Of a DNA stretch of 64,000 bases, positions 47,954 to 60,506 are shown piece by piece; the first letter of the stretch is position 1, and every line of letters begins with the position of its first letter. The DNA comes from an uncultured Actinomycetota bacterium. Lineage in GTDB: Bacteria; Actinomycetota; Actinomycetes; JAFAQI01. The notes under the pieces were generated by a model. That model did no database searches, was not told where the DNA came from, and saw nothing but the letters and a program-made list of their open reading frames with translations. The stretch spans positions 1-64,000 of the forward strand of contig CAVYQE010000007.1 in NCBI GenBank assembly GCA_963770565.1, in the 5' to 3' direction. The translations under genes and the position numbers were made by a program.

Positions 47954-48101
47954 AGCCACCAGCCCCGGTAGTCCCTACGCCCGTTTCAGCACCCAACGCC
48001 TCGACCAAATCGGGCATTCGGGTCGCGAGGGGGGCGTTACGCCGGCCGTCAACAGGCGTTGTGTGTTGAAACGGGCGGGCGCGCCGGGGCGCGTGGTGGC
48101 T
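47954..48101. repeat. Long intergenic inverted-repeat element (MITE/REP-like or structured 3' UTR)
   Basis: 24-bp arms 47978-48001 and 48054-48077 with 2 mismatches; outer arms AGCCACCA..GCCCCGG / CCGGGGC..TGGTGGCT. Confidence 0.65.
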
Positions 48102-49572
48102 ACAGGTCGACCGCGACGTACTTGGTGGTGACGTACTCGTCGATGCCCTCGAGTCCGCCCTCGCGCCCGAAGCCGGACTCCTTGATCCCGCCGAACGGTG
48201 CCGCGGCGTTGCTGACCAGTCCGCGGTTGAGGCCGAGCATGCCGACCTCGAGTGCCTCGCTGACCCGGAACGCGCGTTTGATGTCGCGGGTGAACAGGTA
48301 GGCGACCAGGCCGAACTCGGTCGCGTTGGCCGCCTCGATCACCTCGGCTTCGGTCGAGAAGGTCGCCACCGGTGCGACCGGACCGAAGATCTCCTCGCGG
48401 AGCAGGTCTGCATCGTGAGTGATGCCCGACAGCACGGTCGGTGCGTAGAAGTAGCCGCGGTCGCCGACCCGCTCGCCGCCGGTCATGACCTTTGCGCCCT
48501 TGCCGACCGCGTCATCGACGAGCTCGGCAACCTTGTCGCGCTGCGTCCCGTCGATCAGTGGCCCGACCTGCACGCCGTCCTCGGTGCCGCGGCCGACCGA
48601 CATCGCGCCCAACCGCTCCGAGAGCCGGGCCGCGAACTCGGTCGCGACCGACTCGTGGACCAGGAACCGGTTGGCCGCGACGCATGACTCGCCGCCGTTG
48701 CGCATCTTGGCGATCAGGGCCTGGTCGACGGCTTCGTCGAGGTTGGCGTCGTCAAACACGATGTACGGCGCATTGCCGCCGAGCTCCATCGAGCACTTGA
48801 TCAGCCGCTTCGAGGCCTGCTCCATCAGCTTCTTGCCGATCGGGGTGGAGCCGGTGAACGACATCTTGCGCAGCCGCGGGTCGTCGAACAGCGGTCCGGT
48901 CACCTTGCTGGCACTGCTGGACGTGATCACGTTGAGTACGCCGGCCGGAAGGCCGGCCTCGGTCATCAGCTCAGCAAGCGCGAGCATCGACAGCGGGGTC
49001 TGCTGGGCCGGCTTCACGACCATCGTGCAGCCGGCCGCAACAGCCGGCCCGATCTTGCGGGTGCCCATCGCGGTCGGGAAGTTCCACGGCGTGATCAGCA
49101 GGCACGGCCCGATCGGCGCCTTCATCGTAAGCAGCCGGCCGGACCCGTTCGGGTTCACCGCGTAGCGCCCGTCGATCCGCACCGCCTGCTCGGAGAACCA
49201 GCGGAGGAACTCCGCGGCGTACACGATCTCGCCCTTCGACTCGGCGAGCGGCTTGCCCATCTCGAGCGTCATGAGCAGAGCGAGGTCGTCGGCCCGGGAG
49301 TTCATCAGCTCGAAGGTCCGGCGCAGGATCTCGCCGCGGTCGCGAGGCGGGGTGGCGCCCCACGCGGCCTGGGCCGCACACGCCGCGTCCAGCGCGGCGG
49401 CAGCGTCCTCGGGTGTGCCGTCGGCGACCGCGCAGAGCGCCTCCTCCGTGCTTGGGTCCTCGATGTCGAGCGTCATGCCGCTCGAGCTGTCGCGCCACTC
49501 ACCCCCGATGAACAGTTGGTGCGGCGCGGCGTCGAGGACGCGCTTTTCGTCAGCTGCAGTCACGGTCGTCAT
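48100..49572 (-). CDS. gabD: NAD(P)-dependent succinate-semialdehyde dehydrogenase
   Basis: ITPWNFP, FTGST, SMELGGNAP, KMRN.G..CVAANR, EEIFGP, PFGG.KESG.GREG. Confidence 0.92.
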   Translation of the reverse strand: MTTVTAADEKRVLDAAPHQLFIGGEWRDSSSGMTLDIEDPSTEEALCAVADGTPEDAAAALDAACAAQAAWGATPPRDRGEILRRTFELMNSRADDLALLMTLEMGKPLAESKGEIVYAAEFLRWFSEQAVRIDGRYAVNPNGSGRLLTMKAPIGPCLLITPWNFPTAMGTRKIGPAVAAGCTMVVKPAQQTPLSMLALAELMTEAGLPAGVLNVITSSSASKVTGPLFDDPRLRKMSFTGSTPIGKKLMEQASKRLIKCSMELGGNAPYIVFDDANLDEAVDQALIAKMRNGGESCVAANRFLVHESVATEFAARLSERLGAMSVGRGTEDGVQVGPLIDGTQRDKVAELVDDAVGKGAKVMTGGERVGDRGYFYAPTVLSGITHDADLLREEIFGPVAPVATFSTEAEVIEAANATEFGLVAYLFTRDIKRAFRVSEALEVGMLGLNRGLVSNAAAPFGGIKESGFGREGGLEGIDEYVTTKYVAVDL

Positions 49573-50242
49573 CCCTCTGTCGTACACCACGCGGGCCGCC
49601 CGCCACGATCACGATGTCCGGCTCGCCCCTGGCCACCATGATCGCGTGTGTCTGCACCGAGGCGAAATGCCGGTCCAGGACTGCCTGGTACGCCGGTGCC
49701 GGTGCCGAGCTCCAGATCGCCAGCACCCCGCCGTCCTGCAGGCGGGACTCGATCAGGTCGGTGCCCGCATCGTCGTACAGCGTGGCGTTGCCGGCCGTGA
49801 CCGTCCAGCCGGGGCCGTTGTCGACGTCGAGGCAGATCACGTCGTACCGGGTCGACGTGGATCGAAGGTGCGCGACGACGTCGACGACGACGAGCCGCAC
49901 CCGGTCGTCCGTGAGGGCGGCACCCGAGTAGTCGGCCAGGTGGCGGCCGTGCCACTCGATGAGGGCGGGCTCGATCTCGACCACCTCGACCTGACGCACG
50001 CGGGCGTCGGAGAGCGCCTCGACGAGCGAGAAGCCGACCCCCAATCCGGCGATCAGCACCACCTGCGGGTCCGGGTGCCGGGCGAGTGCCGCGCTGGCGA
50101 GCAGCCGCTCGGAGCGCCCGTCGCGAGTGTCCATCAGGAACGTGCCGTTGCTGATCACCTCGTAGTGCGCGCCGTCGCGGCGGAGCACCAGCTCGCCGCG
50201 CGGGGTCGCCGCTCGTTCGACGACCAGCGGCCGATCGGTCAC
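49550..50242 (-). CDS. Spermidine synthase-like SAM-dependent methyltransferase
   Basis: TPRGELVLR, NG.FLMD....SE, LI.GLG.GF, LDVDNGP, LAIWS. Confidence 0.85.
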   Translation of the reverse strand: MTDRPLVVERAATPRGELVLRRDGAHYEVISNGTFLMDTRDGRSERLLASAALARHPDPQVVLIAGLGVGFSLVEALSDARVRQVEVVEIEPALIEWHGRHLADYSGAALTDDRVRLVVVDVVAHLRSTSTRYDVICLDVDNGPGWTVTAGNATLYDDAGTDLIESRLQDGGVLAIWSSAPAPAYQAVLDRHFASVQTHAIMVARGEPDIVIVAGGPRGVRQRDDDRDCS

Positions 50243-50703
50243 TCGGGGGCGACGATGCTCGCCAACTGTGACGAGATCAGGTTGCGGTCCTCGTCGTCGT
50301 CGACCTTCTCGAGCAGGGCTCGGGCCAGGTCCGCCTCGTAGGTGTAGTTGGCCTTGTCACCTGCGGCCGCGTGTGCCCGGGCGAGCCCCTCGTGCGCCGA
50401 GGCCTTCAGCCAGGTCGGCAGGTCGGCCGACTCGGCCCGGTCGACCGCCGCGCGGGCAAAGGTGAGTGCGACATCCGGAAGGCCGGCCAGGCTGGCGGTA
50501 TGGGCGACCTGCCAGTCGGCCACCGCGAGGTTCTCCTCGGTGCCGCCCGCCTCTATCCAGTGCTGGCGGGAGGCGAGCGCCAGGGTCACCATGTCGCGGT
50601 TCTCGGCGATGCTCCGGACGGGCGTGTCGATCAGGTCCCAGGCCGCGTTGAAGTACTGGATCGCCTGGCCGCGATGGCTCGGCTGCCAATCGTCTTCAGT
50701 CAT
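50239..50703 (-). CDS. Conserved alpha-helical hypothetical protein
   Basis: H...A...FN..W.L, M...A.AS..HW...G...N.....WQ, EGLARA pattern; ATGA overlap with the acyltransferase. Confidence 0.75.
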   Translation of the reverse strand: MTEDDWQPSHRGQAIQYFNAAWDLIDTPVRSIAENRDMVTLALASRQHWIEAGGTEENLAVADWQVAHTASLAGLPDVALTFARAAVDRAESADLPTWLKASAHEGLARAHAAAGDKANYTYEADLARALLEKVDDDEDRNLISSQLASIVAPE

Positions 50704-51629
50704 CGCCATGCCCTCGCCTTCGCGCCCCGGACCGTCGGTCCGGCGGTTGACGCCCACACCCGTCGCCAGTTCGCCACTTCGGGACCGGACGACGACGGCG
50801 TGGCGTCGCTCGCGGCCCGGCGGGCCGCGGCGTACCAGTCGGTGGTGTCCTCGTCGAGCAGGGCCGCGAGTGCGTCCGATACCCGGCCGTTGAGGGCCAA
50901 GGTGTTCTCGTCCGGCAGTGGGCGGACCGGCCGGCCGTAGCGCACGTGCACCGGCGGCCGGCCCGGCTTCGGCCAGTTGCGCCCGCGCGGCATCGCGGCG
51001 TACGAGCCGGCGATCGCCACCGGCACGATCGGGATGCCGTGGGTGCGCGCCAGTGCCGCCGCACCCGGGCGGAACCGCCGGGTCCAGCCGTCCGGCGACC
51101 GGGTGCCCTCGGGAAACATCACGATGGACCAGCCCTGCTCGATCAACGTTGCGGGCGTGTCGGAAAGCCCGGTGCCGTGCCGCTCGATCGGGAACGTCGC
51201 GAACAGCAGTGCCGAGCCGATCGCCCGCCACCAGGCGTCGAAGAAGTAGTCGGCGGCCGCGCCGACGGTGATCTTCCGCTGCCACTTCACCGGAAGCGTC
51301 GTGAGCAATAGCGCGGTGTCGAGATGCGAGGTGTGGTTGGCGACCAGGATGACCGGGCCTTCGAGGTCGTCGAAGATGTCGAGGCCGTCGACCTCGACGG
51401 TCGTCTCGCGCCGGACCAGTGGCGAGAGCCCGCCGCGCAACGCGACCTCCCGAACCATTCGCGCCGGTCGCGAGCGAGCCCATTCGGTCGGGAACTCGCG
51501 GGGCTCCGGGAAGGTGTGATGCGGCTCGGCCGACCGCGGTGGCAGCGACCGGCGGGTCCAGCGCCAGCCGCGCGACATCACGGCCAGGTCGGCGACGAGA
51601 CCCGGCCGGCGTTGGTTCACGCGACTCAT
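50700..51629 (-). CDS. Lysophospholipid/glycerol-phosphate acyltransferase (PlsC family)
   Basis: NHTSHLD (HxxxxD), AAADYFF, FPIER, FPEGTRS, PIVPV. Confidence 0.92.
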   Translation of the reverse strand: MSRVNQRRPGLVADLAVMSRGWRWTRRSLPPRSAEPHHTFPEPREFPTEWARSRPARMVREVALRGGLSPLVRRETTVEVDGLDIFDDLEGPVILVANHTSHLDTALLLTTLPVKWQRKITVGAAADYFFDAWWRAIGSALLFATFPIERHGTGLSDTPATLIEQGWSIVMFPEGTRSPDGWTRRFRPGAAALARTHGIPIVPVAIAGSYAAMPRGRNWPKPGRPPVHVRYGRPVRPLPDENTLALNGRVSDALAALLDEDTTDWYAAARRAASDATPSSSGPEVANWRRVWASTAGPTVRGAKARAWR

Positions 51630-53223
51630 CTGACGTCCGCGAGCATGTGCGGCGGCGCGTGCAGGTAGGTGATCGACGGGCTAGAACCGACCGCGCCACG
51701 GCACCATCTCGAGCGCGTCGGCCAGCGTCGTCGCGGCGCGAAACCCCATACGTTCCACGGCTTTTCGGTCGGCGCCGACCCAGACGACATTGCGCGATCC
51801 CGAGGTGGTCGAGCGCGTGCGCGCCCCAGTACCACATGTAGAAGGGGTGCACGCCGTGGTAGGCGTGCGAGGTCCGGTAGAGGTGGATGTACCAGGGGTC
51901 GGTCGCGTACTGCCTTCTCGAACTTCGCCTCGATGGTCGCCGGGTCGGTCGACTCCGACGAGCACCTCTTCGAAGAAGTCGACGTAGCTCGGGTGGTGCA
52001 GCTGGCTGAACTCGTACGGCACCGGGTGATGGAGGATCAGCGCGCCGCCCGGGCGCACCAGCGGCTTTCCCCGGTACATGTTGAAGAAGTAGCCGAGCCC
52101 CAGGCACATCGCGAGGATCGGGTTCATCACCGAGTTGACGTTGTAGGGGCCGACGATACGGCAGCCCCAGCACGAGCACGTCGGACTGGCCCGTTGACCT
52201 CGACCAGCTGCTGGCGATGCACCGACTCCAGGGTCTTCTTGTGGACCGGCCTCGACCTCGCCGGCCTGCACGCTGGTCAGCCCGTACGGCGCTTCCATCC
52301 GCTGGAACGAGCGTGCGCCGCAGCCGCGGCCGGCATCCGGTCGAGGCCGCGCATGGCGCCGAGGCCATCGCCTGGTCGCGCGCCGACCATTCCCACTCGC
52401 GCTTGGTCAGGAAGCCGTACTGCGATCGGGAAAGCGTGGTTGTTGAGCGTCGTCTCGATCTGGAAGATCTTCACGTGCTCGGCGAGCAGCCGGCCCATCC
52501 GCCAGGCCGAGGAGTGCAGCGCCGACTTCTCCGGGTCCATGAACGACCGCGAGTGGACCATCGTGTGGCTGTTGTGGTGGTGCCGCAGCGACTTGTACGA
52601 CGCCAGCCCGATCGGCACCGACTTGTGGCCGCCGTCCATCGCGACGAGGTTGACGTTGACGTAGACGAGCAGGTCGCTCTCGGCCGCCCGCTTGTTGATC
52701 TCGACGTCCTCGCCGCGCGTCGGTCAGGCCGAGGTGCAGCAGGTTGTCGGCGTCCTCGGCGTCGTGGTTGGTGAGCTGGTCCGGCCAGAACGAGCGGAAG
52801 ACCCGCTCGCCGACGATCGGCTGGATCTCGGCCGCGGTCATCCGGCGGTGCAGCGCGTTGGCGACGATCAGCTCGACGTCGTCGACGCCGGCCTCGGCGG
52901 CGCGCGTGAGGACGGCCTCGATGATCCGCTGGCGGATGTCGGGCAGGCGCATCGGCGGCAGCGGCAGGCTGATGTCGTCGAAGGCGATCGTCAGCTTCAT
53001 GCCGGCGCGCAGGAGGGCGCGGCAGCGGCGTCGAGTCGATCGGATGTCGAGCAGCGCCTCGATGGATCGCCTGGTCGACGTCGGGAGGCCGGGCAGGGAC
53101 TCGGGCGGGTAGATCACCCGGGTGCCGAGCGGGAACCGCTCGAGGCGGAAGGCTCTCGCCGGAGTGCACGAGCAGCGGCGGGGTGCGTTCGTCGACCTCG
53201 AGCACGAAGCCCGGGCGGGTCAC
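51626..53223 (-). CDS. LarA/lactate racemase-domain (DUF2088) protein, multiple frameshifts
   Basis: Stitched across frames: [68 protein letters not shown]...[37 protein letters not shown]. Confidence 0.8.
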
Positions 53224-54432
53224 GTGCGTGTCACTTCCGGTGCTGGTGGGCAGGTCGAAGACGACGCGTTCGAGGTGCCCAGCCGGCCTGCGACGAGCGC
53301 GTGGTCGAGGGCCTCGCGCCAGCGGTCCAGCGGGTAGCGCACCGCCGACCAGCGCGTCGAGCGGTGCGCGTCGCGGCGAGCTCGGGTCGCGACCTCGAAG
53401 GCGTCGCCGGCGGCTGGCGTAGGCGCCGGCCAGCGACAGCTCGCGGAACCACGCGGGCGTGAGGTCGGATGCGGTCGCCGGGCACGCCGGAAAGGACGAC
53501 CCGGCCGCCGGCCCGGGTCGACGCGCAGCGCGGCGTCGACCGAGCCTCGCGATCCGACCGCGTCGAGGGTCACATCGACCCCGCCGAGCAGGTACGGCGG
53601 CCCGCGCTCGGGCTCGAGCCGGAGCGCGCGGGTGGCGCGGCGTACCCCGCTCGCGACCTCGGCCGGCGAGATGACGTCGCGTCGCTCCGAACCGCTGCGC
53701 CAGCTCGCGCTGCCGGCGGTGCTTCGCGACGACCGTGATCTCGCCCGGCCGGCGTGAGCTCGCGCAGCGCCAGCGCGGTGAGCAGGCCGACCGCGCCGGC
53801 GCCGACGATCAGTGCCGACCCGCCGTCCGGCTGAGGGCGGCGCGGCGGGCGACGTGCACCGCGCAGGCGAGCGGCTCGACCAGGACCGCGCGGTCGTCGG
53901 GCAGCTCGTCGGGCACGGCGTGCAGCTGGGACACGGTGCGCGACGAACTCGCCGCTCCAGCCGCCGCCGGTGTCGGCGCAGTAGCCGGTCTGCAGGCCGG
54001 GGGACAGGTGGCCGACGGTGATGCGGTCGCACCGGTTGGTCTGGCCGATCCGCGCAGGCCTCGCACGGATCGAGGCCCGGGCGTCACAGCCGAGCACCGG
54101 GTCGATCACCACCCGGGTGCCGGCCGGCATGCCCGGTCGCAGTCGTCGCGGGTCTCGCCGACCACCTCGTGTCCGGGCACGAACGGCATCGAGACCAGCG
54201 AGGCGAAGTAGAGCGAGGAGTGACCGGTCACCGTGGCGAGGTCGGAGCCGCAGATGCCGGAGAGCCGCGGGCGCACCCGGGCCCAGCCCTCACCCGGCGA
54301 TCGCGGACCGTCCCGATGGACCAGGCGAAGCGGCGCCAGCGGACCGGCGAGCAGACCGGGCAGGCGCGGGCCCACTGCCCGCGCCGCGACATAGCGCGGC
54401 AGCGAGCGGTAGACCTCGAGCGCGGAAATCAT
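53220..54432 (-). CDS. Zinc-binding (MDR family) alcohol dehydrogenase, multiple frameshifts
   Basis: SGICGSD, PGHEVVG, structural-Zn Cys region, GGGWS, EPLACAVH, GAGAVGL, YPL..WREA. Confidence 0.82.
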
Positions 54433-56699
54433 CGGACCGCCGCCACGGTCGGCGCTCGTGTCTTGGTGCCGTGCCAGATCTCCATCGGCCAGCGCTCCTT
54501 GCGGGCCACCCGGAACAGCACGACGTCGGGGTCGACGACGACGGGTTGCCCGACCGTGCGCAACAACGGCAGGTCGCTCGCCGAGTCGGCGTAGGCGTAG
54601 CTGGCGGCCAGGTCCCAGCCGGCCTCCAGCGCCCGGTGCCGCAGCCAGGCGGCCCGGGACTCGCCGACCAGCGGCGGCCGGTCGAGGTGCCCGGTGCAGC
54701 GGCCGAACTCGTCGACCGACAGCTCCGCCGCCACGACCTCGTCGAACAGCGCCGCCACCGGTCGGGTCAGCGGGGTGACCGCGCCGGTGACCAGCACGAG
54801 GTGGTGGCCGGCGAGCCGGTGCTCGCGGATCGCTCGCACCGCGTGCGAGGACACCGGGTCAGCATCATCGGCGCGAGCTCGTCGTCGACGATCCGCTCCA
54901 GCTCGGCGATCGAGCGCCCTCGTAGCGCCGGTAGACCATCCGCAGGAACGCCGCTCGGTCCCGGCGTTGGGTGACCAGCCAGCGCGGTAGCGCCCGGGCG
55001 ACCTCGCCGACCTCACGCGCCTTGGCGGTCATCGCCAGCTCGGGGAGCCGCAGCCAGAGGTAGGACTCGACCACGTTGCTCGACAGCAGGGTGCCGTCCA
55101 TGTCGAAGACCGCGACCGTGTCACTGCCGTTCTCGGCCACCTGCCGGGTGGGTTCGGTCCGGGGTCCGCGAAGCGCGCTCAGCGCGGTCAGCGGCGCGAC
55201 GACGGCCGGGACGTGGACGTCGACGAGGTAGTAGCGCCAGTCGATCATCGTGGCGTCGAACCCGAACGGTTCGACGTCGTCGGGATGCAACGCCTCGTGC
55301 AGCGCGAGCGTCGACCGGTCGGAGAAGTGCAGCTCGGCATCGGCGTACGGGCGGTAGAGGTCGAAGTAGCGGCGGAGGAAGTCCAGCCGGCCGCGCTGCC
55401 GGTCGAGGCTGCGCGCCCAGTCGCGGGTCCGGGCCGACCGCGGAAGCGACGTGACGACCCGGTCGGCGGTGCGGTGCGCGCGGTCGCCGAGGCGGATCAG
55501 CTGATCCGACCCGCTCCGACCCCGGCCACTGCCAGCGCGGCACCCGGACCTCGCCGCGGTCGCGCTGCACCATCGGGTGCTCGACGAAGTAACCCGCACA
55601 CCAGGTCGTGCAGCAGCCGGAAGCTCAGCGGGTTTCGGGCGCCGGAGCAAATCGTGTAGTACGCCGGCGAGCCCGGCTCGGGCCGCGTGGCGGCCGCCGC
55701 GATGCATGGCGTTGACGACGAGGTCGACCGGGATGATGTCGATGACGCCGTCCGGGATGCCGGGGAAGTCGGGCAGGTCGCCGCGGCCGAATGCCAGGAT
55801 GATCGGCTCGGCCATCTTGAAGCCTTCGATCCACCCCGGGAACGGCTGGCGCAGCGCGCTTTCGATGATCGCTCGGGCGGAGCGACGGTGACCGGCGAGG
55901 TGCGCCGCGGTGCTCCTCGACCGCGCGCTCAGCCATCGCTTTGGTGAAGGTGTAGCAGTCGGTCCAGCCGAGGCTGCGGCCTCGCTCGCGGCCGGCGTCG
56001 ACCAGCTGTCTTGGTGACCCATTCGCGGCGACGTCGCTCGGCTTCCGCGGAGACCGACAGCGCGCCGAGCGTGCTGTGATCCGCCTCGGCCTCGGCGGTG
56101 AAGACGGCAAGCTGCTCGGCCGAACGGCTGTCGATCTCGGCCCGCTCGCGCAGCTGTGCCGCCATCGTGGCCTCGCTGCGCCAGTCGACGGTGTGGTCGA
56201 GCCGGCCCTCCCGGACGTGTCCTTGTTGGCGACCGGCGACGTACGCCGTGGAGACGTGGACGTAGTGCGGCCGGCTGCTGCTCGCCTCGATCGCGGCGAG
56301 CAGGTTCAGCGTGCCGTGCACGTTCGTGGCGAAGCCATCGTCGATCGCCGGATCGAACGACACCTCGCCCGCGCAATGGATCACGATGTCGAGGTCGCCG
56401 GGCAGGTCGGGCAGATTGTCGAGGTCACCCTCGAGGACGGTGATGTGTCCGCTGTCCAGCAGCGGCCCGAGATCGTCGCCGCGCCGCGTCCGCAGCCGCT
56501 CGAAGGCCGGCCCGGCCAGCACGTGCCGGACCCGGTCCTGGGCCGAGAGCATCCCCCGGGCGCGGACGACCAGGGTGACTGGTGTCTCCGGGAGGTCGTG
56601 CAGCAAGCGCTCGAGCAGCGCCTCGCCCACGAAACCAGTCGATCCCGTGACCAGGATTCGCTGGCCGGCGAGGGCCTCGGCGAGCGGCCGGGCGGTCAT
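54429..56699 (-). CDS. Fatty acyl-CoA reductase (male-sterility SDR)-HAD-IB phosphatase fusion, multiple frameshifts
   Basis: LVTGSTGFVG, HCAG.VSF, HVSTAYV, YTFTKAMAE, PFPGWIEG, DIIPVDLVVNA; then AVFDMDGTL, LVTGA, YAYADSASDLPLL. Confidence 0.85.
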
Positions 56700-56760: not shown

Positions 56761-57447
56761 ATGCGATGTTCGTACCGCGCTTCGGTCGCGGAGCCGGTCG
56801 AGGCGGTGTGGGCTGCGCTCTCGGACCTGGATCGGGTGCTTGCGGCGGCGCCGGGCGCCACCCTCACGCGGGACGGCGACGGCGTCGCGGGGTCGGTCAA
56901 GTGCCCGGTCGGTGCCGCACAGATCACCTACCGGATCACGGTGACGAGCGGTACGGCGGACGCCGGCCCGCGCGCTGCGGTCCTGTCGGTTAGCGGTCGT
57001 GAGGCCCGCGGCAGCGGCACCCTGCAGGCGACACTGACGATTGCGGTCGCTGCCGCCGATGCAAGCACGAGCGTCGAGGTCGATGGCGATATCGACGCGT
57101 CCGGCCGCGGCGCGAGCGCCGATGAGGCGGACTGGTCACGGGTGCTCGGCCGCCTGCTCGACGGCGTCCTCGCCGGCGTCGTGGGCGCTAAGGGGACAGG
57201 TGCTAAGGGGACAGGTACCAAGGAGTCAGGCGCCGAGCGGGCCAAACCGGCCGGAGCGGAGACCGCCGCAACGCCGCCGCGACCCGCGCTGTCGATCGCG
57301 CCCGATGGTCGCGACTACGCTCCCGACGACCTCGGCTGGGCCGACCGGCTCCCGAGCGCACGAGTGGTGGGCACGATCGTGTTCGGCCTCGTCGTCGTCG
57401 TCCGCCGCCGACGGCGGCGGCACCGATCCGAAGGAGCTGACGAATGA
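56761..57447 (+). CDS. CoxG-like SRPBCC protein with C-terminal TM and Arg tail
   Basis: VW..L.D..RV....PGATL, Y.., G.EARG.G; TM plus RRRRRR; CACAAT-N6-ATG. Confidence 0.75.
57187..57231 (+). repeat. 15-bp tandem repeat in the CoxG-like linker
   Basis: GCTAAGGGGACAGGT x2 plus a degenerate third copy ([15 protein letters not shown]). Confidence 0.6.
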
Positions 57448-59042
57448 CCAGCAGTGACCCGGCGCAGGTCATCGGCCCGGTTGAAGACCGGTTCGATGAG
57501 ATCCTCACGCCCGAGGCACTCGCATTCGTGGCCGACCTTCAGCGCACCTTCGGTGCCCGTCGTACCGAGCTTCTCGCCCGCCGCCGCGACCGGCGGGCTC
57601 AGGCCGCCGAAACCGGCCGGCTGGACTTCCTCGACGAGACCCGCGAGATCCGGGCGGACACCAGCTGGCGGGTCGCGCCGCCGGCTGACCTGGTCGATCG
57701 GCGGGTCGAGATCACCGGCCCGACCGAGAAGAAGATGCTCGTCAACGCACTGAACTCCGGCGCCAAGGTGTTCATGGCCGACTTCGAGGACGCGAGCACC
57801 CCGACCTGGCACAACAAGGTGCAGGGCCAGGTCAACCTGATCGACGCGATCGAACGGCGGATCGACTTCGTGTCGCCGGAGGGCAAGAGCTATGCGCTCA
57901 ATCCGACCGTAGCCGCGCTGATGCCGCGGCCACGCGGCTGGCACCTGCCCGAGAAGCATGTGCTGGTCGACGGCGAGCCGATCAGCGGTGGCTTGTTCGA
58001 CTTCGGGCTGTTCTTCTTCCACAACGTGGCCCGGCTGACCGCGAAGGGCACCCGGCCGTATTTCTACCTGCCCAAGCTGGAGTCGCATCTGGAGGCCCGG
58101 CTCTGGAACGACGTGTTCAACCACGCGCAGGATGGGTTGGGGGTCGCGCGCGGCACGATCCGCGCGACCGTCCTGATCGAGACCATCCCGGCCGCGTTCG
58201 AGATGGACGAGATCCTGTACGAGCTGCGCGAGCACTCCTACGGGCTGAACGCGGGCCGCTGGGACTACATGTTCTCGATGATCAAGATGTTCCGCGATCG
58301 CGGCGAAGAATTCCTGCTTCCCGACCGCAACAGCGTCACGATGACCGTGCCGTTCATGCGGGCCTACAGCGAGCTGCTCGTGCAGACCTGCCACAAGCGC
58401 GGCGCATTCGCGATGGGCGGCATGGCCGCGTTCATCCCCAGCCGCAAGGATCCCGAGATCAACCGGGTCGCGCTCGAGCGGGTGAAGGCGGACAAAGAGC
58501 GCGAGGCGCGGGCCGGCTTCGACGGCACCTGGGTGGCCCACCCCGACCTGGTGCCGACCGCGCTGGCCGAGTTCGACGCGGTCCTCGGCGATCGCCCGAA
58601 CCAGATCGACAAGCTGCGGCCGGACGTCGATGTCAGCGCCGACGACCTGCTCGCGGTCGCCCTCACGCCGGGGGAGAAGACCGCGGTCGGGCTGCGAACC
58701 AATGTCGACGTCGGGATCCGCTACATCGAGTCGTGGCTGCGGGGCAACGGCGCAGCTGCGATCCACAACCTGATGGAGGACGCGGCGACCGCGGAGATCT
58801 CGCGCTCGCAGGTCTGGCAATGGGTGCACAACGACGTGACCCTCGCCGACACCGGCGAGCAGGTCACTGCCGAGCTGGTCCGCAAGGTGGCCGACGAGGT
58901 GACCGCCGAGGTGAGGACCGAGATCGGCGACGACGTCTACGAGTCCGGCCGGTGGGTCGAGGCCCGCGAGATCTTCGAGGAGGTCGCGCTCTCCGACGAC
59001 TTCATCGAGTTCCTGACCCTTCCGGCGTACGACCGGTTGTAG
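57444..59042 (+). CDS. aceB: Malate synthase A
   Basis: [63 protein letters not shown]. Confidence 0.96.
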
Positions 59043-59048
59043 CCCGGA

Positions 59049-60506
59049 TTGGCCGCGCTCGAGACCCTCATCGCGGACTGCCGCCGCGAGCTCGCACCGG
59101 TGAAGGTGATCACCGAGCCGGTCCAGCTCCGGACCTACGAGTGCGACGGCCTGGCGGCCTATCGATGTACGCCGGGCCTGGTGGTGCTGGCCGAATCCCG
59201 GGCGGATGTCGAGTTCGTCGTCGGCCGGTGCGCCGCGCTCGGCGTGCCGTTCATCGCGCGCGGGTCGGGGACCGGTCTCTCAGGGGGCGCGCTGCCGCGC
59301 GGTGACGGCGTACTCATCGTGTTGTCGCGGATGAACACCATCGTCGACGTCGACCTCGGCGACGAGCGGGCGGTCGTGCAGCCCGGCGTCATCAACGCCG
59401 ACCTGACCAAGTCGGTGGCCTCGGCGGGCTACTACTACGCGCCGGACCCGTCCAGCCAGCAGGTGTGTTCCCTCGGCGGCAACGTCGCGGAGAACTCCGG
59501 CGGCGCGCACTGCCTGAAGTACGGCTTCACCGCGCACCACGTCACCGGGCTCGAGGTGGTCCTGCCGGACGGCAGCACCGAACGGTTCGGTGGCAGCGCG
59601 CCGGACCCGGTCGGCTACGACCTGGTCGGCGCGATCGTAGGCAGTGAGGGAACGCTGGGCGTGGTGACCGAGGCGACCGTCCGGCTGCTCCGCCGGCCGC
59701 AGGCCGTACAGACCGTCCTGGCCGGCTTCCACACGATCGATGACGCGGGGAACGCGGTGAGCGCGATCATCGCCGCCGGAGTCCTGCCCGCGGCGATCGA
59801 GCTGATGGATGCGCTCGCGATCGAGGCCGCCGAGGCCGCCGTACATCCGGGTTATCCGGCCGGCGCCGGTGCGGTGATGGTCGGCGAGCTCGACGGGCCG
59901 GTTTGCGAGGTCGACGCACAGCTCGCCGAGGTCGAGCGGTTGTGTGCCGAGGCCGGGGCGTTCGAGATCCGAGTGGCGGCCGACGAGGCCGAGCGCGCCT
60001 TGATCTGGAAGGGACGGAAGTCCGCGTTCGCGGCGGTCGGCCGGATCAGCCCGGACTACATCGTCCAGGACGGCGTGATCCCGCGCACGGCACTCTCCGA
60101 GGTGCTGCTGGCGATTGAGGCGGTCGGTGCCGAGGCCGGGATCCGGGTCGCCAACGTCTTCCATGCCGGTGACGGCAATTTGCACCCGCTGGTGCTCTTC
60201 GACGAGAGCCGCGGTGAGACCGAGCGCGCCGAGGAGGTGTCCAACCGGATCATCGAGCTCTGCCTCGAGCACGGCGGCTCGATCACCGGCGAGCACGGCG
60301 TCGGTCACGACAAGAAAGTGCACATGGGAAAGATGTTCAACGAGATCGACCTCGACGTGATGCAGCTGGTGCGGTGCGCGTTCGACCCGGACAACATCTG
60401 TAACCCGGGCAAGATCTTCCCGACGCCGCGGTTGTGCGGCGAACGGCCCGGCCGGGCCCGCGGGGTGCACCCGTTGCAGGAAGCCGGCATCGCGGATGTC
60501 TTCTGA
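59049..60506 (+). CDS. glcD: Glycolate oxidase FAD subunit GlcD
   Basis: RGSGTGLSGGA, PDPSSQ, ENSGGAHCLKYG, GSEGTLG, FHAGDGNLHP, GEHGVG. Confidence 0.92.
   Translation: MAALETLIADCRRELAPVKVITEPVQLRTYECDGLAAYRCTPGLVVLAESRADVEFVVGRCAALGVPFIARGSGTGLSGGALPRGDGVLIVLSRMNTIVDVDLGDERAVVQPGVINADLTKSVASAGYYYAPDPSSQQVCSLGGNVAENSGGAHCLKYGFTAHHVTGLEVVLPDGSTERFGGSAPDPVGYDLVGAIVGSEGTLGVVTEATVRLLRRPQAVQTVLAGFHTIDDAGNAVSAIIAAGVLPAAIELMDALAIEAAEAAVHPGYPAGAGAVMVGELDGPVCEVDAQLAEVERLCAEAGAFEIRVAADEAERALIWKGRKSAFAAVGRISPDYIVQDGVIPRTALSEVLLAIEAVGAEAGIRVANVFHAGDGNLHPLVLFDESRGETERAEEVSNRIIELCLEHGGSITGEHGVGHDKKVHMGKMFNEIDLDVMQLVRCAFDPDNICNPGKIFPTPRLCGERPGRARGVHPLQEAGIADVF

Follow-up and report, generated by a model that had tools for sequence, protein, structure and literature searches.

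Can a bacterium form the ether bond of an alkyl glycerolipid without AGPS, the flavin-dependent alkyl-DHAP synthase (DHAP, dihydroxyacetone phosphate)? Four adjacent genes in a 64,000-nucleotide stretch of DNA from an uncultured Actinomycetota bacterium raise this question. The stretch, which we will call the window, is positions 1 to 64,000 of the forward strand of contig CAVYQE010000007.1 (assembly GCA_963770565.1). The genes encode a fatty acyl-CoA reductase (FAR) fused to a HAD-IB phosphatase (FAR-HAD), a zinc-dependent dehydrogenase of the MDR type, a homologue of LarA, and an acyltransferase (AT) of the PlsC type. Based on comparisons across genomes, we think it rather likely that this operon is an AGPS-independent route to 1-O-alkyl (ether) glycerolipid precursors, in which the MDR and the LarA homologue would fill the AGPS step. 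More tentatively, we suggest that the LarA homologue, acting with its partner dehydrogenase, is a nickel-pincer-nucleotide (NPN) enzyme that forms the alkyl ether bond of the glycerolipid. The genes and their parts are:

54429..56699, minus strand: FAR-HAD(IB) fusion gene (NAD_binding_4, Sterile and HAD by Pfam)
about 56699-55190, minus strand: FAR part of the fusion (NAD_binding_4 and Sterile)
about 55146-54432, minus strand: HAD-IB phosphatase part of the fusion (HAD)
53220..54432, minus strand: Zn-MDR gene of the polyol dehydrogenase type (ADH_N by Pfam in the window)
51626..53223, minus strand: LarA homologue gene, of the LarAH group 14 type (Lar_N in two window frames)
50700..51629, minus strand: PlsC/GNPAT-type AT gene, intact, 309 amino acids (PF01553 at 7.4e-22)

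We found the domains of all four proteins by running Pfam on the stop-to-stop frames of the window's minus strand. FAR-HAD starts with the ATG at 56699, and consecutive genes overlap by 4 bp: ATGA at 54432-54429 joins FAR-HAD to the MDR, GTGA at 53223-53220 joins the MDR to the LarA homologue, and ATGA at 51629-51626 joins the LarA homologue to the AT. The second junction is the least certain because the 3' end of the MDR gene has extra bases relative to a genome from the same genus (G001), which is our reference for intact orthologues. (Labels that begin with G, L, f or P refer to genomes, loci, families or proteins; the window's own genome is G000, and C2 is one of its contigs.) In G001, the four orthologues are intact, with 756, 393, 525, and 309 residues, and all three junctions are 4-bp overlaps. 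So the gene positions, the overlaps, and the gene identities given in a preliminary description of this DNA were correct, as judged by Pfam, NCBIfam, motifs, and the reading of the junctions. Three of the four genes are broken by frameshifts in the window, which we return to below, and the window's frames still contain the catalytic motifs: GSTGFVG and YTFTK (FAR), FDMDGT (HAD), GICGSD and PGHE (MDR), ALHRRMT, GGHKS, and RHHH (LarA homologue), and NHTSHLD and FPEGTRS (AT).

The G001 proteins let us assign these families with more detail. Its FAR-HAD matches NAD_binding_4 at 3.7e-46 and HAD at 2.1e-34. Residues 6-497 align to a fatty acyl-CoA reductase of known structure (PDB 7eoz, 1e-53), and this part has the NAD_binding_4 and Sterile domains along with the GxxGxxG and YxxxK motifs; its product may be an alcohol or an aldehyde. 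The HAD part scores 105.8 bits against TIGR01490 (the cut-off is 98.3) and has the DxDGT nucleophile motif, as FDMDGT. The MDR of G001 has both ADH_N and ADH_zinc_N, and its best relatives of known structure are a ketose reductase (1e3j, 3.8e-19), L-idonate 5-dehydrogenase, sorbitol dehydrogenase, and arabinitol dehydrogenase. The window's AT is 88% identical to that of G001 and belongs to PF01553, with HX4D and FPEGTR motifs; it falls below the cut-off of TIGR00530 (67.5 bits vs. 103), and its only match of known structure is PlsC from T. maritima. Its acceptor may be DHAP, glycerol 3-phosphate, or a lyso-lipid. A hydropathy scan did not identify a convincing transmembrane helix in any of the four proteins, and Pfam did not identify AMP-binding or PP-binding domains in the FAR-HAD or AT of G001.

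The four genes stay together across a wide range of Actinomycetota, which the preliminary description had proposed as a check on its interpretation. A scan of species-representative genomes found at least 597 relatives of the LarA homologue, and we examined the best 80 loci for synteny. The order FAR, HAD, MDR, LarA homologue, AT is kept in 73 of these; the other seven loci (L056, L060, L064, L072, L079, L087, and L102) run into the edge of a contig on the side where genes are missing. FAR and HAD are in one open reading frame (ORF) in all 73 complete loci, and in the loci compared the MDR is always between FAR-HAD and the LarA homologue. The carriers include Frankia, Kribbella, Nocardioides, Actinomadura, Actinoallomurus, Thermomonospora, Micromonospora, Jiangellaceae, Pseudonocardiales, and Acidimicrobiales. 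This four-gene arrangement is far beyond chance. No AGPS matched within the window's operon or within the 73 complete loci. In an even sample of the phylum, the cut-off of the family model for the LarA homologue (NF052592) was exceeded in 97 of 401 Actinomycetota (a tally that takes in the unpublished genomes G117, G255, G177, G347, G111, G372, G203, and G149) and in 0 of 14 control genomes. Within the window's class, the family is present in 17 of 18 genomes of the window's own family vs. 0 of 12 genomes from 12 other families.

What sort of enzyme is the LarA homologue? The G001 protein scores 909.2 bits against NF052592 (LarAH_14_15_16; cut-off 740), covering model positions 1-520, while the window's copy matches only in pieces (199 + 194 bits) because of its frameshifts. 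The best matches of known structure are 9q2u (2.7e-31) and 9q3j, and both domains align. Compared to 9q2u and 8ezf, our protein keeps the ribose-binding Asp, the equivalent of His108, the Lys that tethers the cofactor (Lys184 of LarA Lp), and the nickel ligand His200. The position of His174, which is the second catalytic histidine, is occupied by Asn, so just one catalytic histidine is present. Across 74 family members from many orders, the Asp, the first catalytic His (in the LHRR motif), the Lys, and the nickel-binding His are invariant, and conservation reaches 97% or more at 184 of 525 positions. The NPN-binding residues are likewise invariant in a comparison of 20 members. We conclude that this is a putative NPN enzyme with a single catalytic His. 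LarAH groups 14 and 15 were already described as having no equivalent of His174 (PMC12611868, section 2.1). (The "LarAH15" of a 2024 paper, a gluconate epimerase from Phytophthora, seems to be numbered apart from groups 14 and 15 of 2020.)

The genes for making the cofactor are also present. Contig C2 of the window's genome encodes LarB (274 bits), LarC (391 bits), and LarE (284 bits), with larB and larC adjacent, and the only match to Lar_N over the cut-off in this genome is the operon's copy. According to tblastn, larB, larC, and larE all directly adjoin the operon in 15 of the 80 loci. They are upstream of the operon in Micromonospora, Pseudonocardiales, and Actinoallomurus, and downstream in three Actinomadura loci and in Thermomonospora.

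We also considered paralogues of the LarA homologue (35–40% identity) as evidence about the operon, and set them aside, as none of them adjoins FAR, MDR, or AT. At one such locus (L115), about 5 kb from the paralogue, there is a weak HAD-like match with 30% identity. Two paralogues from family f42 (L112:7044-8699 in G060 and L114:7399-8991 in G363) are about 40% identical and score 500–540 bits on NF052592, which is below the cut-off. They directly follow a gene for a family III CoA-transferase, near an AMP-binding enzyme, and may act on CoA-linked hydroxyacids.

Evidence for a link to ether lipids comes from the relatives of the AT. We found 60 longer proteins that are related to the AT at E ≤ 1e-10. 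Fifty-six of these are AMP-binding(+ACP)+AT proteins (ACP, acyl carrier protein), and 37 of the 56 also contain NAD_binding_4. The order FAR, acyl-CoA synthetase, ACP, AT, which we verified for P0138, is the architecture of ElbD from the ether lipid operon of Myxococcus. Another of the long relatives, P0124 from Phytoactinopolyspora halotolerans (WP_163742660.1), is a fusion of AT and AGPS; its AGPS part matches the alkyl-DHAP synthase of Dictyostelium (2uuu) at 1.4e-126 and the mammalian enzyme at 1.5e-96. Yet another, P0122, is a fusion of the LarA homologue and the AT.

P. halotolerans belongs to the Jiangellales, and 58 genomes from this order show how AGPS and the LarA homologue are distributed. 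In 18 genomes, the AT is beside or fused to an AGPS that is 59–100% identical to that of P0124; 17 genomes have the LarA homologue over the cut-off; 23 have neither; and none has both. larC is present in 1 of the 18, in 16 of the 17, and in 8 of the 23. (These tallies take in the unpublished genomes G432 and G469, both with the LarA homologue. In G483, which is of the AGPS type, the AT and AGPS parts are on two separate contigs.) All seven of the AGPS-type loci that we examined have a FAR-HAD fusion 0.6–2.6 kb from the AT, and none of the seven has a match to the MDR or the LarA homologue. Relative to G001, the AGPS-type proteins are 46–48% identical in the FAR part, 39–42% in the HAD part, and 42–45% in the AT. 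For instance, in L139, FAR-HAD (764 amino acids) is followed by 610 bp in which Pfam matches nothing, then by the AT and an AGPS that overlaps the AT by 4 bp. A search for the MDR in whole genomes agreed: in four of four AGPS-type genomes, we did not find an orthologue (the best match was at 2.3e-25 and 38% identity), whereas a LarA-type control genome gave a match of 4.1e-113, from a gene adjoining its LarA homologue.

Phylogenies suggest the direction of the change. We built a careful maximum-likelihood tree of FAR-HAD with 34 rows, including 25 of the 74 LarA-type proteins, chosen for spread, and rooted it on two ElbD-like FAR domains. All of the AGPS-type proteins fall into a single clade (support 100/99), which is sister to the LarA-type proteins of Jiangellaceae (96/95) and is nested deep within the LarA-type tree. 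Forcing the LarA type to be monophyletic costs 16.5 log-likelihood units (p = 0.045, approximately unbiased (AU) test). A quick tree of the AT also has one AGPS-type clade (99) inside the others. Our reading of these trees is that, in one lineage, AGPS replaced the MDR and the LarA homologue, and then the lar genes, while FAR-HAD and the AT were retained. Finding FAR-HAD and the AT with a true AGPS, and with the MDR and the LarA homologue gone, is what would be expected if the LarA-like protein fills the AGPS slot. The MDR was lost together with the LarA homologue and is therefore probably part of the AGPS-equivalent step.

These results refine the preliminary description, which held that the operon covers every step of ether lipid synthesis except that of AGPS and that the LarA-like protein, as the only unexplained gene, would be a new enzyme. 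AGPS is indeed absent from the cluster, and the displacement argues for a LarA-like protein in its slot. But the loss of the MDR along with the LarA homologue makes it less likely that the MDR is just an alkyl-DHAP reductase, and the family is not new, as it was already named LarAH group 14.

In the route that we propose, the FAR domain would reduce acyl-CoA to a fatty alcohol or aldehyde, which would supply the alkyl chain, and the PlsC-type AT would make an acylated three-carbon phosphate (acyl-DHAP), as GNPAT does. The Zn-MDR and the NPN-loaded LarA homologue would then convert the acylated intermediate and the product of FAR to 1-O-alkyl-glycerone phosphate or 1-O-alkyl-glycerol phosphate, using hydride transfers instead of flavin chemistry, and the HAD-IB domain that is fused to FAR would remove the phosphate. 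We infer the substrates, the product, and which of the MDR and the LarA homologue forms the ether bond. If the LarA homologue does so with the MDR, it might use a "borrowed" hydride, for a reductive O-alkylation or an acyl-to-alkyl exchange on an intermediate at the level of DHAP or glycerol 3-phosphate. The NPN would take a hydride from the alcohol or from the C2 hydroxyl and give it back after the condensation, and the MDR would set the oxidation state of C2 with NAD(P)H. Analogies for borrowing a hydride are the flavin trapping of AGPS and the "borrowing-hydrogen" pincer catalysts.

A number of points weigh against this proposal. To our knowledge, NPN enzymes are solely 2-hydroxyacid racemases or epimerases, and we know of no precedent for ether bond formation by such an enzyme. 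The chemotaxonomy of Nocardioides, Micromonospora, and related genera is well studied. Yet the introduction of a 2022 paper, where bacteria that contain alkyl glycerol ethers are listed, names no aerobic actinomycete (PMC13159169). The group 14 protein from Frankia sp. had no activity in assays with seven hydroxyacids (PMC7583248), which fits an ether lipid role but proves nothing. The paralogues beside CoA-transferase III genes hint at substrates of the acyl-CoA type. P0122, the fusion of the LarA homologue and the AT, is a single gene call from a metagenome and could reflect a lost stop codon. The displacement in the Jiangellales is a single event among kin, not 18 events, and it is evidence for a shared pathway context, not for an identical reaction. 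The AU test against monophyly of the LarA type is marginal, and in the quick AT tree, the nesting of the AGPS type has 90% support by the Shimodaira-Hasegawa-like approximate likelihood ratio test, with no starred branch that forces the placement. The public contigs that cover the window (see below) are shallow, with a depth of 2–9, and three of the four sequencing runs are from one sample. Finally, in the window's genome and some other carriers, an unlinked gene from the AGPS family could supply the step in trans.

That unlinked gene qualifies the preliminary description's statement that AGPS is missing: it is absent from the operon, but C2:447324-448877 (plus strand; L153:1501-3054) encodes a protein that is 35% identical to the AGPS of the Jiangellales cluster and matches 2uuu at 2.6e-87. 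AGPS-like genes (33–41% identity) are found in 88 of the 401 sampled Actinomycetota, including all nine genomes of family f14. We considered these genes as a potential part of the operon and rejected them, as we checked seven places and saw no linkage to FAR, HAD, or AT at any of them. Tallied at E ≤ 1e-60 (with the unpublished genome G297 included), AGPS-family genes are rare in the families that are richest in the operon: none of 10 genomes in f28 (10 of 10 have the LarA family), none of 22 in f33 (20 of 22), and 3 of 31 in f30 (31 of 31). Separately, in G154, which is from another family of the window's class (f16), L150:8120-10605 holds an AT-AGPS pair that is 45% and 56% identical to the two parts of P0124; there is no FAR-HAD within 8 kb.

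Other explanations would account for some of these observations. The operon's product might be a lipid without an ether bond, such as lysophosphatidic acid or monoacylglycerol (made via acyl-DHAP) with fatty alcohol released in free form, or else an acylated polyol. Plant GPATs with a phosphatase domain yield monoacylglycerol. In this explanation, the MDR and the LarA homologue would set the oxidation state or the stereochemistry of the head group, and the Jiangellales cluster would be a later re-use of two of the genes for a new product. The MDR's similarity to polyol and ketose reductases is consistent with this explanation, as is the suspicion, voiced by the authors of the structures, that the nearest solved homologues of LarA are carbohydrate enzymes (PMC12611868, section 2.6); ether lipids are unreported from the carrier genera in the 2022 list; and a displacement does not prove that the two reactions are equal. 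However, we consider this explanation somewhat unlikely. FAR-HAD and the AT remain orthologous and linked once AGPS enters; the long relatives of the AT are of the ElbD type or are fused to AGPS; the MDR, the LarA homologue, and larC disappear together exactly where AGPS appears; and neither a wax synthase nor a glycosyltransferase emerged as part of the unit when we clustered the flanking ORFs.

The remaining explanations concern the LarA homologue itself. An ether lipid might be made by the operon with the LarA homologue inverting or isomerising C2 in the glycerol phosphate backbone or in an intermediate that carries an alkyl or acyl group, while the MDR or an unlinked enzyme of the AGPS family forms the ether bond. 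Every LarA enzyme characterised so far inverts a C2 hydroxyl centre (PMC7583248, PMC11770544), the preliminary description also named this option, and the AGPS-family gene on C2 could be the unlinked enzyme. But the authors of the related structures take an Asn in place of His174 to preclude ordinary two-base racemisation (PMC12611868, section 2.5), and the LarA homologue has Asn at this position; most of the carrier families do not have AGPS-family genes (at the threshold given above); and where we examined the AGPS-like genes, they were not linked to the operon. So this seems unlikely to us. It is highly improbable that the LarA homologue works as an ordinary racemase or epimerase of 2-hydroxyacids, with no tie to the lipid genes beyond being next to them. 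Its membership in the LarA superfamily would fit, but this would not explain why all 73 complete loci, from different classes, keep the gene order, with 4-bp overlaps at the junctions, or why the gene is lost with the MDR and larC when AGPS arrives, and the Frankia member was inactive on all seven hydroxyacids. A conserved, self-contained operon for an AGPS-independent route to alkyl glycerolipids remains the explanation that we favor.

Is the window's copy of the operon functional? The frameshifts are real features of the window's sequence, as the preliminary description had reported, and FAR-HAD, the MDR, and the LarA homologue are each scattered over several reading frames. Aligning the genes one by one to G001 gave 36 gaps whose length is not divisible by three (FAR-HAD has 8, the MDR 12, and the LarA homologue 16), and all of them lie within this patch:

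51701..56008, no strand: patch in which the assembly consensus has local errors (indels and substitutions), probably not biological (alignment to G001 and public contigs)

The eight gaps in FAR-HAD are between 56008 and 54853, and a single 6-kb alignment to G001 gave 39 gaps, from 56008 to 51701. There were no frame-shifting gaps in 4,704 aligned bases of the AT and three neighbouring genes (SpmS-like, aldehyde dehydrogenase, and malate synthase). If we impose the register of G001 on the three broken genes, there are no stop codons in about 1,670 codons, the proteins are 79–85% identical to those of G001 (vs. 88% for the clean AT), and the differences are mainly at third codon positions. We also compared the window to public contigs from four soil runs (the three from one sample mentioned above and one from another study). 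At 12 of the 12 listed indel sites, which correspond to 11 of the 39 gaps, these contigs have the in-frame state, and they are 100% identical to the window only across stretches without indels. (The contigs cover the window partially, and the uncovered parts are uninformative.) Given the clean flanks, the in-frame contigs, and the lack of stop codons in the relative's register, the roughly 36 frameshifts are very likely errors in the consensus rather than decay, and the operon copy is probably intact in reality.

We did consider that FAR-HAD, the MDR, and the LarA homologue might be true pseudogenes in this organism, with the operon decaying. This would explain why the 36 frame-shifting indels are limited to three adjacent genes with clean neighbours, and why no public contig is identical to the window across any indel site. 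However, gene decay in bacteria is biased towards deletions, and in 32 of 38 gaps (counting two in-frame gaps) the window has extra bases, with bases missing in just 6. The absence of stop codons, the protein identity, and the third-position bias once the indels are set aside, the in-frame contigs at 12 indel sites, and the intact state of every catalytic motif also argue against decay, so we think it quite unlikely. The patch could stem from a mixture of strains or from low coverage in a stretch of 72–77% G+C. We also noticed that contigs from runs X1, X2, and X4 join window positions 55282 and 56468 with 31 other letters between; these contigs may derive from a related gene or organism.

Beyond the four genes, little is shared between loci. 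When we clustered the flanking ORFs, no further family occurred in more than 14 of the 80 loci, and the most frequent neighbour was a TetR regulator directly after the AT (14 of 80 loci; for instance, L047:10378-11154). FadD-type long-chain acyl-CoA ligases are near the operon in 11 loci, almost all of them from Nocardioides (for instance, L041:1373-3046). In the window, two genes that also flank the operon in G001 are divergent from it: an SRPBCC/CoxG-like gene (56761-57447, plus strand) and malate synthase (57444-59042, plus strand; Pfam 2.9e-112). They are followed by an ORF with a weak match to FAD oxidases (59049-60506, plus strand), which is 28% identical to AGPS and is probably of the GlcD type. 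On the other side, 3' of the AT, are a methyltransferase-fold gene that resembles spermidine synthase (the SpmS-like gene; 49553-50242, minus strand) and an aldehyde dehydrogenase of the succinate-semialdehyde type (48100-49590, minus strand). Across the 80 loci, the SpmS-like gene was matched in only four close relatives of the window's genome.

Overall, the ether lipid interpretation in the preliminary description is supported, with a product that we infer from the gene content and its evolution. The orphan LarAH14 family gains a concrete and testable class of substrates, and the pairing of the same FAR-HAD and AT with either AGPS or the MDR and the LarA homologue is a natural experiment for identifying an AGPS-independent ether-forming step, such as the myxobacterial ElbD pathway would also need. 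Our proposal predicts that abundant aerobic soil actinomycetes contain ether lipids and require nickel to make them, and it bears on the sources of the non-isoprenoid alkyl glycerol ethers that serve as environmental biomarkers. If the LarA homologue does form the ether bond, this would solve the problem without flavin or AGPS and give the NPN cofactor its first role in lipids and outside of racemases. About a quarter of the sampled actinobacterial species (97 of 401) would then be unrecognised nickel-dependent producers of ether lipids in soils.

We found no printed description of this operon or of the FAR-HAD/AT/AGPS cluster of Jiangellales, although Table S1 in the supplement of PMC7583248 may give gene neighbours for group 14. 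In the main text of a 2026 survey of FAR, GNPAT, and AGPS in PNAS, the words Actinobacteria, Actinomycetota, and Jiangella do not occur, and none of the top-ranked matches in the literature joined "nickel-pincer" with ether lipid terms. In our view, the pathway is of a known kind, and there is a fair chance that its enzyme chemistry is new.

The known pathway with FAR, GNPAT, and AGPS is found in animals, protists, and Myxococcus (MXAN_1676-1674). Our operon shares with it a FAR with NAD_binding_4 and Sterile domains and an AT of the PlsC family, and its orthologues in Jiangellales are clustered or fused with a true AGPS. It differs in that AGPS is absent and a Zn-MDR and an NPN-type LarA homologue are present instead. 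Also, FAR is fused to a phosphatase, while in protists and in MXAN_1675 it is fused to the AT (PMC13012113). The Jiangellales cluster has orthologous FAR-HAD and AT genes, and its AT likewise overlaps the next gene by 4 bp, but that next gene is AGPS, the cluster lacks the MDR and the LarA homologue, and 17 of the 18 genomes lack larC.

The single-histidine LarA homologues closest to ours are LarAH group 14 from Frankia sp. and the solved proteins from Streptococcus plurextorum and Blautia wexlerae (9q2u and 9q3j). The operon's protein scores over the cut-off of NF052592, aligns to 9q2u in both domains, and keeps the Asp, Lys, and His that bind NPN and the one catalytic His, with Asn at the position of His174. 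The context differs: the operon's LarA homologue is among lipid genes (FAR and AT) and not among carbohydrate genes.

A parallel for making ether lipids without AGPS is the elbABCDE operon of Myxococcus xanthus. It encodes ElbD, which has FAR-like and AGPAT-like domains, the HAD-like phosphohydrolase ElbB, two proteins of the NAD-epimerase family, and ElbC, of unknown function (PMC9131029). The preliminary description had asked whether the elb cluster holds orthologs of the HAD and LarA-like genes: it has the HAD-like ElbB, and no LarA-like gene is among those listed in that paper. According to a 2026 preprint, elbD and elbB are the core that is kept in the clusters of sponge symbionts. The elb operon works without AGPS, as ours probably does, and both combine FAR-like, AGPAT-like, and HAD-like functions with NAD(P)-dependent partners; the nearest long relatives of our AT share the architecture of ElbD. 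In contrast to elb, our operon has no acyl-CoA synthetase or ACP domains, FAR and AT are separate genes, and only the AT domain is related to ElbD. Its reductase partner is an MDR instead of a member of the NAD-epimerase family, and it includes the LarA homologue.

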